A stretch of 59,709 nucleotides of DNA, from positions 14,014 through 73,722 of the forward strand of contig CAZWEM010000003.1 of assembly GCA_964632315.1 (NCBI GenBank), written 5' to 3'. Below, one piece after another: positions 25,558 through 53,013 of this stretch. The DNA is from an uncultured archaeon. GTDB lineage: Archaea > Asgardarchaeota > Lokiarchaeia > Sigyniarchaeales > SOKP01. The notes beneath the pieces are model-generated. The model made no database searches, was not told where the DNA came from, and saw nothing but the letters and a program-made list of their open reading frames with translations. Made by a program: the position numbers and the translations under genes. Every line of letters begins with the position of its first letter. Positions within the stretch are counted from its first letter, which is position 1.

Positions 25558-26355
25558 TTACTTCAACTTAACTACTTCCGCAGTCTTGTATAAGTAATCA
25601 AAGTAATAATTCGCTGCTGGACCAAACGCCACGTGGTCAGTTTGTGCGCCAAAATAACTTAATCCTTTGAAAAATTTCTGGGTCATAATGATGAATGCTT
25701 CTTCTCCCTCATCCATTACAACACAGGTTCCAAATACTTGATCCCTTTTTCTAATTTCACCAAGTTCCGCATATTTTTTAAGCATTGTACGAAATTCCTT
25801 TTCCTCAAGTGCTTTCTCTTCAATCAATATCCTTATGTCAATTACACCGCGTGCTCTGGCTTTTTTTGTATCCTCATAAAATACATCCAAGAATTCATAT
25901 TGAGGACAAACCATATAAATTGAATTTCTAGCCAGATTTATCAGTGATAAACCACGACTGATACAAGTATCGCGTCCACGGTGTATATAGAGAGCAATTT
26001 TTATAGGTGTATCATGGGCTTGATAAATTGGCGTGAGCTCATGAATGATTTTGTTTGATTGTTCATTAAAATTATCAATCATCTGCTTTTTAGCTATAAC
26101 AAGCGCTTCATCGGGACTTTTGCAAAAATATCTACTCGGTCGCGATTCCTCTTCTTTATGGATAAACATTTTATCCTTTTCAAGTTGCGTGAGGATATTA
26201 TATATCCTTGAGTATGGCACACCCGAGGCTTCAGAGAGTTCTCTTGCATCCATTGGACCTTTACTGATTAAGGTAAGATAAATTGCGATTTCATAATCAG
26301 TTAAACCGATAGATCTCAACGATTCCTTGACTGCTTCGGGGATTTCTTTAGAAAT
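25558..26355 (-). CDS. TrmB family transcriptional regulator (probable ATT start)
   Basis: GLTDYE, ARELSEASGVPYSRIY. The frame is open upstream of TTG 26319 to ATT 26355, 6 nt after AGGTGA. Confidence 0.88.
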   Translation of the reverse strand: MSKEIPEAVKESLRSIGLTDYEIAIYLTLISKGPMDARELSEASGVPYSRIYNILTQLEKDKMFIHKEEESRPSRYFCKSPDEALVIAKKQMIDNFNEQSNKIIHELTPIYQAHDTPIKIALYIHRGRDTCISRGLSLINLARNSIYMVCPQYEFLDVFYEDTKKARARGVIDIRILIEEKALEEKEFRTMLKKYAELGEIRKRDQVFGTCVVMDEGEEAFIIMTQKFFKGLSYFGAQTDHVAFGPAANYYFDYLYKTAEVVKLK

Positions 26356-26602
26356 GATAATTCACCTAAACTATAACACGTTTAAATACTAATATTTTTA
26401 AGCTTTTTAAGAATTTTTAATTCGCATAAAAGTAATACTTAATATAACATTAGAAGTATTAAATTGTTTGTGTTCTTAGAGTTAATTTTACATGCGTAAA
26501 AACCCGAGCGGGGGAAGTCCTCTCATGACTATCATTTTTTCATGAGAATCATTCTTTTTTTTATATTGAAAACATGGTTATGAAAGAATTGAAAACACAC
26601 CC

Positions 26603-26749
26603 TCATCCACCACCACCCTCTGAAGGAGCAGTTCCAAACCAATTGAATCCTATTCCTATAGCAACTAATGATATTATAGCAACTGCAATGATTATGAGGA
26701 TGAGTGTCAACTTTTTATAACTTCTAGGCTCTACTGTAATCTCGGACAT
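26603..26749 (-). CDS. 48-aa single-TM protein ending in GGGG (not in ORF track)
   Basis: MSEITVEPRSYKKLTLILIIIAVAIISLVAIGIGFNWFGTAPSEGGGG*, with AAGGTTG upstream. Confidence 0.7.
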   Translation of the reverse strand: MSEITVEPRSYKKLTLILIIIAVAIISLVAIGIGFNWFGTAPSEGGGG

Positions 26750-26823
26750 TTAGAACAACCTTATTTACAGATCTTGATGAGAAAAGATTTATAGTTTGTG
26801 CTTAAAATAAGATATTTAATGTA

Positions 26824-28446
26824 TTAATTTTCAGAAAAATGCTTATGGATAAAATTTAGCCGGTTTTTTTCGGGATTTTCCTTACCATAAAGTACAAATT
26901 CCTCATATTCGTGATATAGCTTCAGTAAATCATCGTAGAGTTCTATAACTGCTTTCTGGGGCCGTAAAGTAACTTTCTTTTTCAAAATTGACTCAATTAA
27001 TCTTCCCCACGTCAGAGAGTCATTAGAATTTTCAGGAAATGACTTAGTAGCCCTAATTGCGGCTCCAAGGGCAGCTGAATTCGAAATATCGAAAATAATG
27101 ATTTTAGCATTAAAAATATTAGCCGCAACTTGCAAAATTTCTTGATTTGCCGAAGCTCCACCTGTAGCGTGAATCTCAATGGGAATTTTACCCATCCAAC
27201 GTGAATGTAATCGCATCGAAAGAAATTGTGCTTCAATAATAGCCCTCACGTTTCCCTCAACATCTTTCTCATCAAATCCAAATCTTGAAACCCCAGGATT
27301 TAAGACAAGAGGGACGATTTCGGGATAAAAATATGGTAACATTAACTTACCATTATTACCTGGAAGAGATGATTTTAAGAGTTTTGAGAATTGTTCCCAA
27401 GAAAGATTATACTGATCCTTTATTTTTTCTCTAGCTAGGGATCCATTCTTGAAGCATATCAAGGACATATAATCTCCAGTGGGAGCCACAAAAATATGAC
27501 TTTCCCCTGTCATATCTAAGGTTAATTCCTCTAAATATCCGAAAAAGGTATCACTCGTTCCTAAACTGATTGCTGCTTTGTTTTTTGAGGTTACCCCAGT
27601 TCCAATAAGACTATTAGGGTTATCTCCAGAAAATGCCACTACTTTAGTTCCTTCTAAAAAGCCAAATCTTTGTACAATAAATGGTGAAATTTCTCCAATT
27701 ATTGAAACTGGAGAGGTTAAAAGTGGTAATTTTTCTTTCAATCCGGGTGCGGTGGCATCTAGGGCTCGTTTATCCCACTCTTTAGTAGTAATGTTCATTA
27801 AATTCATTCCAGCTCCATCGCCATAATCAATTGGTGCATTTTTTCCTATAAATAATGAAGCTAAAAAAGAACTTACTAAGTGTATAACCATTGTATCACT
27901 ATATTTTTGAGGTTCATTTTGATAAAACTTTCTTATCTGCGGACCAGAGAATCTCTCAAATGTATTAGAACCAGTCAATTTTATAGTTTGTTCTTTTCCC
28001 CCCAATTGCTCTCTTATTTCTTTGCATTGAATTTCAGTACTTGAATCCATCCAAATTGGACTAGTTTTTCTAGAAAACACATCTTTAAGCTGTACATTTA
28101 ACGATAAATAGGAGTCTAATGATTTCAATTGTTTATAGAAGTTCTGATTTAGATATACCGTACCATGTTGTTGACCAGAACCAGATATGCATTTTATATC
28201 TTTAACCTCCACCTCATGCATCAAATCTTTTAACAATAGATCTAAAGCTTCTGCCCACATCAATGGATTTGAATGAACAGTTTTCCCATCTTGAGAAAAG
28301 TACGCTCCATTTGTAGTATTGTAATGTTTTAAATCCACGTCATAATTCAATACATGTTTATATATTACCTTTCGAGAATTATAATCGATAATTATGCCCG
28401 TCAAACTTTGTGTTGAACAGTCAAGGCCGAGAAATAATTGGGACAT
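26824..28446 (-). CDS. xylB: D-xylulose kinase, FGGY family, eukaryotic XYLB/XKS1-like subtype
   Basis: LGLDCSTQSL, SGSGQQHG, PIWMDSST, FERFSGPQIRK, LVSSFLASL, DGAGMNL, GDNPNSL, SLGTSDT, NGSLARE. Confidence 0.88.
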   Translation of the reverse strand: MSQLFLGLDCSTQSLTGIIIDYNSRKVIYKHVLNYDVDLKHYNTTNGAYFSQDGKTVHSNPLMWAEALDLLLKDLMHEVEVKDIKCISGSGQQHGTVYLNQNFYKQLKSLDSYLSLNVQLKDVFSRKTSPIWMDSSTEIQCKEIREQLGGKEQTIKLTGSNTFERFSGPQIRKFYQNEPQKYSDTMVIHLVSSFLASLFIGKNAPIDYGDGAGMNLMNITTKEWDKRALDATAPGLKEKLPLLTSPVSIIGEISPFIVQRFGFLEGTKVVAFSGDNPNSLIGTGVTSKNKAAISLGTSDTFFGYLEELTLDMTGESHIFVAPTGDYMSLICFKNGSLAREKIKDQYNLSWEQFSKLLKSSLPGNNGKLMLPYFYPEIVPLVLNPGVSRFGFDEKDVEGNVRAIIEAQFLSMRLHSRWMGKIPIEIHATGGASANQEILQVAANIFNAKIIIFDISNSAALGAAIRATKSFPENSNDSLTWGRLIESILKKKVTLRPQKAVIELYDDLLKLYHEYEEFVLYGKENPEKNRLNFIHKHFSEN

Positions 28447-51471: not shown

Positions 51472-51564
51472 ATTTTATATTTAAATCTTTGTAAAAAATT
51501 GGGAAATGGATAATAAAAAATAGCAAGAAGGTTTTTATTAGAATTCACTCGATTATGGTTTAAT

Positions 51565-52722
51565 ATGAAAAAAAAGTATTTAGCAATCATAATCATTAGT
51601 GTAATCGTTCTTGCTGGTCTTTCTGGTTTCTTGATTTATTATTTTGGATTTAAGGGGTATCTTCCAGAGTGTTCTGAAAAACCGTTTACCAATTATCCCG
51701 TAGATATGGATCGGATCACGAGTATCACGCCTTTAGGAAATCTCAATCCTCCAGCGCATACATTTCCGACAGATCATATGTACTTTTATACTAATATCAC
51801 GATGTATCCTGATGGATTTGAGATATTTGCCCCAGGCTTTTTAAACATAGAGTCAATCGAAAAGGTTGAATATAATCCTCCCGAAGGAAATATATCTGAA
51901 GATTATACCATTAATTTTTATGCCTGTCGTAACATTAGTGGTCGTTTTGCGCACGTGAATAATCTGAGTGATTACTTATGGAATAAAGTTAACGGATTTG
52001 GAACCGTCTATGGAGATTCAGTGGATAAATATGAAGTCGCCGGAATGAATGTTACCAGGTACATTAAAAATGTAAATCTTGATGTAAATGGTGGTATTTC
52101 TCTAGGTATAGCGGGTTTAGGTGGTGGATATGATTTTTGGCTAAAAGATGAGAGAATTCAATTAAACTGGGTAAACAACGTATGGACCCGGGAATTCCAA
52201 CATGCAGCATGTCCGTTGGATTACTTTACAGATCTTTTAAAAAATAATATGACAACATTTTTAAAAAATTATGACAACACGCCTGTTTTTCCAGCAAATT
52301 ATTGCGGAAGAGTCGATTTCGACGTTGCAGATACTGCTCAAGGTATTTGGGTTAGAAATGGCTATACTGGTCGACCTGAGGATAATGGATTAAGCTTAGT
52401 ATATAGTAACTTTAATTCATCGTTAGGATCAATCTCGATAGGTTATGCTGGTAATTCTACGTGGGATTCTCGAGTATACACGTTTAATCCAAGTGGAACT
52501 GGATTTAAAAATAGAAACTTTGATGAGGTAATTAATGATGGTAATGTCTACTTTTACCTTTGTAAAGAATTTTACTCCGCTCATTACACAAAAGTAATTT
52601 TCCTCAAAATGATAACAGATAGAAGCGTAAAACTCCAATTTTATGACAATGGAGGATTTCCCTTGCCAGCGGATCCAAGGACGTACTGGAATGAAACTAA
52701 AGCTATTGTTTATAGTAGATAA
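51565..52722 (+). CDS. Membrane-anchored extracellular protein, possibly a divergent M23-like fold
   Basis: N-terminal TM, many NxS/T sequons, PTDHMYF, IFAPG, FAHV. Confidence 0.7.
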   Translation: MKKKYLAIIIISVIVLAGLSGFLIYYFGFKGYLPECSEKPFTNYPVDMDRITSITPLGNLNPPAHTFPTDHMYFYTNITMYPDGFEIFAPGFLNIESIEKVEYNPPEGNISEDYTINFYACRNISGRFAHVNNLSDYLWNKVNGFGTVYGDSVDKYEVAGMNVTRYIKNVNLDVNGGISLGIAGLGGGYDFWLKDERIQLNWVNNVWTREFQHAACPLDYFTDLLKNNMTTFLKNYDNTPVFPANYCGRVDFDVADTAQGIWVRNGYTGRPEDNGLSLVYSNFNSSLGSISIGYAGNSTWDSRVYTFNPSGTGFKNRNFDEVINDGNVYFYLCKEFYSAHYTKVIFLKMITDRSVKLQFYDNGGFPLPADPRTYWNETKAIVYSR

Positions 52723-52776
52723 TAATTTCTATTTCTTTTTTATATTACAAAAAGGTTTAAATTTTGAATAAATAAT

Positions 52777-53013
52777 TTAAAACACTATTATTATTATAAA
52801 GATAAGAACTACAAATGATATGCACCAAATTAAATATAGTATTGCCCTAAATTCATCAAATTGCTCTTTCTTTTGAATACTAATCTCTTTTCCACAAATG
52901 GGACAGTAAGACGGAATTTTGCCGAAGAACCAAACCTTTCGGATGAAAGGCGTATATCTAGGGAATATCCGAGCCCCACAATAATCACACCGAGGTTGTT
53001 TTAATCTACTTAT
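52777..53013 (-). CDS. 78-aa zinc-ribbon protein with C-terminal TM anchor (probable ATA start; not in ORF track)
   Basis: (M)SRLKQPRCDYCGARIF...SYCPICGKEI...AILYLIWCISFVVLIFIIIVF*. Confidence 0.7.
   Translation of the reverse strand: MSRLKQPRCDYCGARIFPRYTPFIRKVWFFGKIPSYCPICGKEISIQKKEQFDEFRAILYLIWCISFVVLIFIIIIVF

Follow-up and report, generated by a model that had tools for sequence, protein, structure and literature searches.

Do the genes of Lokiarchaeia begin only at ATG, GTG and TTG, or are further codons read as starts? The question is raised by four genes in a 59,709-nucleotide stretch of DNA, called the window throughout, which corresponds to positions 14014–73722 of contig C3 (CAZWEM010000003.1) in G000, a metagenome-assembled genome (MAG) of an uncultured archaeon from the Sigyniarchaeales (4.45 Mb, 119 contigs, 33% GC, contamination 8.6%); the order includes complete genomes of 4.4 and 6.0 Mb. 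The genes encode a GPN-loop GTPase (GPN), a TrmB-family regulator, a URO-D/MtaA-family protein (URO-D) and a small protein with a zinc ribbon and a transmembrane segment (Zn-ribbon). An initial annotation, made from the DNA alone, had placed their starts at ATT or ATA codons and proposed relaxed start-codon selection in the lineage. The four codons, the in-frame stops upstream and the Shine-Dalgarno (SD)-like motifs are all present in the sequence, with a motif at plausible spacing in front of GPN, TrmB and URO-D and none in front of Zn-ribbon. In what follows, ATG, GTG and TTG are termed canonical starts, and ATT, ATA, ATC, CTG and ACG, the other codons examined, near-cognate ones; SD strength is the duplex energy with the 16S tail, in kcal/mol. 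Taken together, sequence comparisons make it very probable that initiation is real at three of the four sites, GPN, TrmB and URO-D, and that near-cognate starts are used lineage-wide. Good support for these three starts comes from their orthologs, in which ATG occurs at the aligned position.

The GPN gene (35880–36656, minus strand) comprises 258 codons when read from ATT 36656, and its product then matches Pfam ATP_bind_1 from profile position 1. The SD GAGGT (36666–36670, minus strand) is followed by an in-frame TAG; its energy is −6.8 for ATT 36656 versus −5.0 for ATA 36662, the two codons that the initial annotation had left as candidates. A non-ATG start upstream of the first ATG was upheld, and ATA 36662 was rejected because the ATG column of the orthologs falls on 36656. 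Among 30 genomes of the genus, this column holds ATT in 17, ATA in 4, ATG in 6, TTT in 2 and TTG in 1, that is, ATT or ATA in 21/30, and the gene is single-copy and intact. The DNA upstream of the column is not conserved, and in three genomes of the genus a stop lies immediately 5' of ATT. The next in-frame canonical codon is codon 46 counted from 36656 (ATG 36521), translation from which would leave out the P-loop. Since the GPN starts of 19 genomes from other families are mostly ATG (ATG 15, GTG 2, TTG 1, ATC 1), ATT at this position is characteristic of the genus.

The TrmB gene (25558–26355, minus strand; 265 codons; Pfam TrmB) has its probable start at ATT 26355, with the SD AGGTGA (26362–26367, minus strand; −8.3) placed 6 nt upstream and overlapping an in-frame TGA. 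In the column of 26355, 29 orthologs from the genus show ATG 24 times, ATC 4 times and GTG once; the gene is single-copy and intact, and has a non-AUG start in several species. The next in-frame canonical codon, TTG 26319 at codon 13, had been retained as an alternative. This part of the earlier proposal did not stand, because the 12 residues before TTG are conserved and 24/29 orthologs have ATG at the position of ATT.

For URO-D (46707–47720, plus strand; 337 codons; Pfam URO-D), the proposed start at ATA 46707 agrees with the homologs, 12/13 of which carry ATG in this column, and the gene body is under purifying selection, with a ratio of nonsynonymous to synonymous substitution (dN/dS) of 0.15. 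The SD AGGTGAT (46694–46700, plus strand), 6 nt before ATA and accompanied by an in-frame TAA at 46692–46694, reaches −10.8 versus a median of −1.9 in 12 ATG-started homologs; the next in-frame canonical codon is codon 40 (ATG 46824). The ATA is limited to this species and its strains, and two near-identical public copies retain both ATA and SD. A short in-frame open reading frame (ORF; 46662–46694, plus strand) ends in this SD, and re-initiation after it could aid the weak start.

The Zn-ribbon gene (52777–53013, minus strand; 78 codons), whose product matched no Pfam family, is a different case. A sister species gives a gapless alignment in which its ATG stands exactly opposite ATA 53013, and dN/dS is 0.17 in the body versus 1.59 in the 14 codons upstream; together these identify 53013 as the ancestral start. 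As this ATA has no SD, recent start loss is a live alternative to a weak start, and the gene is not a secure example of non-AUG initiation; that it is a pseudogene or a shortened gene is a considerable possibility, if somewhat below an even one. The earlier statement that only ATA is available was right in that ATA 53013 is present and too simple in that two ATGs exist as well, one out of frame (53020) and one in frame (53055), the latter blocked by TAA 53020–53022. The next in-frame canonical codon is codon 77 of the 78, and an exact DNA scan of JGI metagenomes for this start gave no match. A 4-codon out-of-frame ORF (53006–53020, minus strand) overlaps the ATA and could likewise aid a weak start by re-initiation.

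Truncated annotation, which the initial annotation had predicted, is found on this very contig: the NCBI/JGI records give GPN as 213 aa, without profile positions 1–38 and hence the P-loop, URO-D as 298 aa (39 residues short) and TrmB as 231 aa (34 residues short). Look-ups of the full-length proteins were started with Ile and could match no Met-started record, so that only the presence of truncated forms is informative. NCBI translation table 11 permits ATT, ATC, ATA and CTG as initiators, that is, all the codons seen here except ACG, and the elongation code of G000 is likewise standard (plus selenocysteine, Sec). Common gene callers, unlike the table, use ATG, GTG and TTG only, and records are therefore truncated in practice.

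Near-cognate starts extend well beyond the window. The 3590 long ORFs of G000 have 1018 strong SD placements near their 5' ends, of which 597 are followed by a canonical codon and 232 lack one; these counts refer to placements, not strictly to genes. Behind such orphan SDs, ATT makes up 13.8% in frame versus 3.3% out of frame, ATA 10.7 versus 2.3%, ACG 2.8 versus 0.7% and CTG 2.0 versus 0.2%, an in-frame enrichment of about 4- to 10-fold. Near-cognate codons amount to 80/253 of the in-frame triplets, with 10.8% expected (p = 3e-19). Their signal peaks at an aligned spacing of 6, which is also the ATG peak, and there ATT, ATA and ATC account for 42/107 triplets in frame versus 4/97 out of frame (p = 3e-10). 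The excess, ~53 sites, sets a floor of 1.5% of long ORFs.

Homology was used to count truncated conserved genes, a check that the initial annotation had suggested genome-wide. In a comparison with 1.2 Mb from relatives in the genus, ~12/621 G000 genes have a conserved N-terminus that precedes any canonical codon and sets in at ATH or CTG; they include TFB and a class I aldolase-like gene, both identified by their motifs and not through a search of families. The ~12 come from manual sorting of 26 flagged cases, the others being three read-throughs of TGA (probably Sec), one split uS8 gene and ~10 that are noise or unclear. A strict column test gives 5/271 near-cognate genes. Because both tests miss genes with a close downstream canonical codon, such as TrmB, our estimate lies above these counts, at 2–4% of G000 genes probably starting at near-cognate codons. 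The TFB ORF itself (contig C16, minus strand, offset 28923) has no ATG, GTG or TTG until codon 74, past the zinc ribbon, and has ATT/ATC after a strong SD. Two SelD-like ORFs (contig C3, minus strand, outside the window) and contig C32 show a conserved in-frame TGA near the N-terminus, which is consistent with selenocysteine, and tRNA-Sec is found on contig C35.

The use of these codons goes together with a strong SD. The genus 16S tail carries the standard archaeal anti-SD, and all 14 near-cognate starts defined by homology have an SD of −5 kcal/mol or below, compared with 40% of 640 ATG starts (p = 3e-7). When the near-cognate SD is set against that of the canonical ortholog in 13 families, it is stronger in 10 and weaker in 2 (p = 0.027). 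Most columns occupied by some other codon lack an SD and arise from misalignment, thus providing an internal control. Within the uL14 ribosomal-protein cluster almost every gene begins with ATG, the exceptions being ATA in one uL6 and ATT or ATA in three uL15 genes; uL6, uL15, eL19 and TFB use near-cognate starts in some genomes. Ortholog columns and genome-wide enrichment thus bear out the relaxed start selection first proposed for the lineage, with the refinement that it is conditional on a strong SD, concerns a few percent of genes and leaves ATG in nearly all genes of the uL14 cluster. Within one stretch each of the complete genomes G044 and G055, 0/32 and 0/29 conserved genes needed a near-cognate start, numbers too small to exclude 2%. 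A reassignment of AUA to Met, of the mitochondrial type, was rejected, since the codons of G000 at 3441 internal Met columns (ATA 2.1%, ATT 4.0%, TTA 5.1%) show an ordinary substitution pattern. An Rpp14-like gene of G002 (L231 region) has GTA GTC behind a strong SD, with none of the usual near-cognate codons.

The initial annotation had also pointed to aIF1, aIF2 and the initiator tRNA. G000 contains two copies of aIF1A, aIF2-alpha and aIF2-gamma; aIF1, aIF2-beta, the initiator tRNA and 16S rRNA were not found in its assembly. In relatives, aIF1, aIF2-beta and the initiator tRNA lie within about 30 kb, and most genes of this block have no G000 orthologs. With the neighbouring block largely missing, the absence of aIF1 is most simply one assembly gap, and loss of aIF1 as the cause of relaxed selection is not supported. 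Its start was read in related genomes, in tallies drawn from best-scoring matches and not from random sampling: 31 distinct sequences of the family have ATT (27), ATC (2) or ATA (2) and never ATG; other Lokiarchaeia have ATA 5, ATG 5, TTG 4 and GTG 1, other Asgard classes ATG 14, GTG 2 and ATA 2, and non-Asgard archaea ATG 60 and TTG 3. An in-frame stop lies 2–3 codons upstream in 25/31 family copies, and the other six have a GTG inside the SD that is callable as a start. A second, divergent aIF1 copy in four genomes of the genus (G005, G026, G033 and G007) also has ATT at the start column. Outside the Lokiarchaeia, aIF1 is apparently CTG-started in one Thorarchaeota genome (L290) and ATA-started in two other Asgard genomes (L357 and L371).

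The initiator tRNA of the genus relative G017 is normal (A1:U72, CAU, three G-C pairs), and its anticodon arm is identical in about 20 genomes of the genus. The G017 gene (contig C70, ~174350–174460) has a ~30-nt insert in the T arm, and ARAGORN therefore misses it. A lesion in the aIF1 protein was considered for the ASGG variant of its ACGG motif and rejected, as the variant also occurs in ATG-started copies of Thermoplasmata.

We propose that the ribosome of this Lokiarchaeal organism very probably accepts AUU and AUA, and less often AUC, CUG and ACG, given a strong SD ~6 nt away. The SD would pre-position the 30S-aIF1A-aIF2-Met-tRNAi complex, which would pair with AUH by a third-position mismatch and yield a full-length, Met-started protein in lower amounts than from AUG. 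The weak codon would act as an expression dial, offset by SD strength. With AUU, AUC or AUA as the start of its own gene, aIF1 synthesis would rise at low fidelity and fall at high fidelity, and such an infC-type loop could maintain a fidelity set point that is sufficiently loose for 2–4% of genes to use these codons. Feedback like that of infC is suggested by the non-ATG start of all 31 family copies of aIF1, as against ATG or TTG outside Asgard; for this step alone, argued from sequence and analogy, we regard the case as evenly balanced. Tentatively, and with the doubts prevailing slightly, the aIF1 loop might be an archaeal counterpart of infC and eIF1 that co-tunes roughly 100 genes, among them GPN, TFB, TrmB and some ribosomal proteins.

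Several observations weigh against this proposal. The ortholog tallies come from related genomes, and their counts are non-independent events. The aIF1 gene is missing from the G000 assembly, it begins with ATG in several Lokiarchaeia, among them the complete genome G055 (6.0 Mb), and no lineage-specific lesion was seen in the aIF1 protein. In the window, the Zn-ribbon ATA has an SD energy of 0, and the two near-identical copies of URO-D have no upstream stop and an open TTG 15 codons earlier, from which they are annotated. Two GPN orthologs (L018 and L030) have TTT in the start column and ATT 1 or 2 codons upstream, and their start is therefore 1–2 codons away. Across G000, ATC is not enriched behind orphan SDs (2.4 vs 2.3%), and among the 14 homology-defined columns, two miss the true start by a single codon and one more is doubtful.

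These starts might be real and yet need neither altered apparatus nor feedback, if, in a slow-growing lineage, AT-driven drift turned ATG into ATA or ATT, with a strong SD required beforehand, and if the low basal initiation that any prokaryotic ribosome shows at such codons sufficed for low-demand genes. Drift of this kind would fit a genome of 33% GC, the confinement of the URO-D ATA to one species and its strains, the ATG retained by most ribosomal-protein genes, the known compensation of GUG and UUG by the SD (PMC5622118) and the initiation of Escherichia coli at AUA, AUC, AUU and CUG at 1–2% of AUG (10.1101/063800). It does not easily account for an aIF1 that is non-ATG in 31/31 family copies with no reversion, for ATT or ATA in GPN of 21/30 genomes, or for near-cognate codons in abundant or essential genes such as uL6, uL15, eL19 and TFB; AUG-to-AUU switches are also as rare as 1 in 61,358 in other prokaryotes, a rough comparison as the branches there are shorter (PMC5622118). 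The uninterrupted non-AUG start of aIF1 speaks against drift without disposing of it, and we consider drift a serious possibility, though on the improbable side. That all four genes are instead pseudogenes or N-terminally shortened, through loss of ATG or gain of an upstream stop, is unlikely. The Zn-ribbon gene, with ATG changed to ATA without an SD in a patchy multi-copy family, lends itself to such a reading, and so does the URO-D frame, which is open from the upstream TTG in the near-identical copies and closed by TAA here. The 15-codon extension from that TTG is, however, found in no other homolog, the low dN/dS of URO-D and of the Zn-ribbon body goes with open frames, and GPN and TrmB are intact single-copy genes with non-AUG starts in several to many species, GPN being deprived of its P-loop if read from the next ATG. 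For GPN, TrmB and URO-D, each taken by itself, decay or shortening is improbable. Orthologs with ATG throughout, combined with decay of the present copies, had been named as the pattern that would speak against non-canonical starts; instead, the GPN and TrmB columns are mixed and URO-D is under purifying selection.

Errors of sequencing or assembly, which could have made ATT or ATA from ATG or shifted the frame, would be conceivable in a MAG with this contamination, and a frameshift of a single base would bring ATG 53020 into line with the Zn-ribbon frame. Such a frameshift was rejected on the gapless alignment to the sister species. The same codons stand in public contigs of this species, and in contigs of four public runs no indel is among the differences listed at the GPN, URO-D and Zn-ribbon sites; one contig is identical to the window at 36622–36935 and another spans 52318–53032 without gaps. 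One of the four runs could itself derive from the sample that yielded G000, and the stronger argument is that the same codons recur in dozens of independent assemblies, besides the near-identical URO-D copies. This agreement and recurrence make assembly error very unlikely. RNA processing that supplies the AUG, whether through a mini-intron of tRNA type close to the 5' end or through base editing, is hardly to be expected either. G000 does hold a possible precedent, its uS8 gene (contig C35, ~14460–14490, minus strand) being interrupted by a 29-nt insert that includes a 9-bp hairpin, is absent from 26 other genomes and resembles an mRNA intron of the tRNA (bulge-helix-bulge) type. Folding of the four 5' regions was in no case better than that of their shuffles, though (z −0.33 to 1.69), and in the orthologs the column is occupied by ATG, with the SD at normal spacing and upstream DNA that varies freely.

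Direct initiation at SD-positioned near-cognate codons, our preferred reading, has partial parallels. The aIF1 of Sulfolobus solfataricus discriminates against AUU in vitro, and infC, which encodes IF3, is autoregulated through AUU (PMC4705826); E. coli has two confirmed AUU genes, infC and pcnB (10.1101/063800). The Lokiarchaeal genes resemble these in having AUU behind an SD and in that the gene of a fidelity factor starts with the codon which that factor rejects. They differ in number, at least about 50 in this genome versus two in E. coli, and in the factor, aIF1 being a member of the eIF1/SUI1 family with a fold unrelated to IF3, for which autocontrol is our suggestion. Eukaryotic eIF1, described as autoregulated through an AUG in poor context (Ivanov 2010, cited in PMC6237735), belongs to the same family and also has a suboptimal start signal of its own, but keeps AUG in a weak Kozak context during scanning, whereas the codon of Lokiarchaeal aIF1 is non-AUG and positioned by an SD. 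In prokaryotes, weak GUG and UUG starts are offset by stronger SDs, and ATT, ATA, ATC, CTG and ACG almost never occur among switch products (PMC5622118); the pairing of a weaker codon with a stronger SD and the preference of highly expressed genes for ATG are shared with the present case, which extends them to those five codons. SDs have been called rare in Lokiarchaea (PMC12993045), unlike our finding of an SD at ~40% of ATG starts and at all homology-defined near-cognate ones. We found no published report of non-canonical starts in Asgard, Lokiarchaeal or Promethearchaeal genomes, in a search that most subscription journals lay outside. Near-cognate initiation and autocontrol of a fidelity factor are known from bacteria and eukaryotes, and their use in Asgard archaea appears to be new.

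In annotations of this genus, a few percent of genes are probably cut short or overlooked. Eukaryote-like proteins are sought in Asgard proteomes, where truncated records distort domain counts and structure predictions. Reviews of archaeal initiation and recoding give only AUG, GUG and UUG as start codons (PMC7531240; PMC8211752), and strictness for AUG is regarded as something that eukaryotes gained. With AUH starts frequent in an Asgard lineage and its aIF1 started at AUU, it would become testable whether all three domains have feedback through a fidelity factor.

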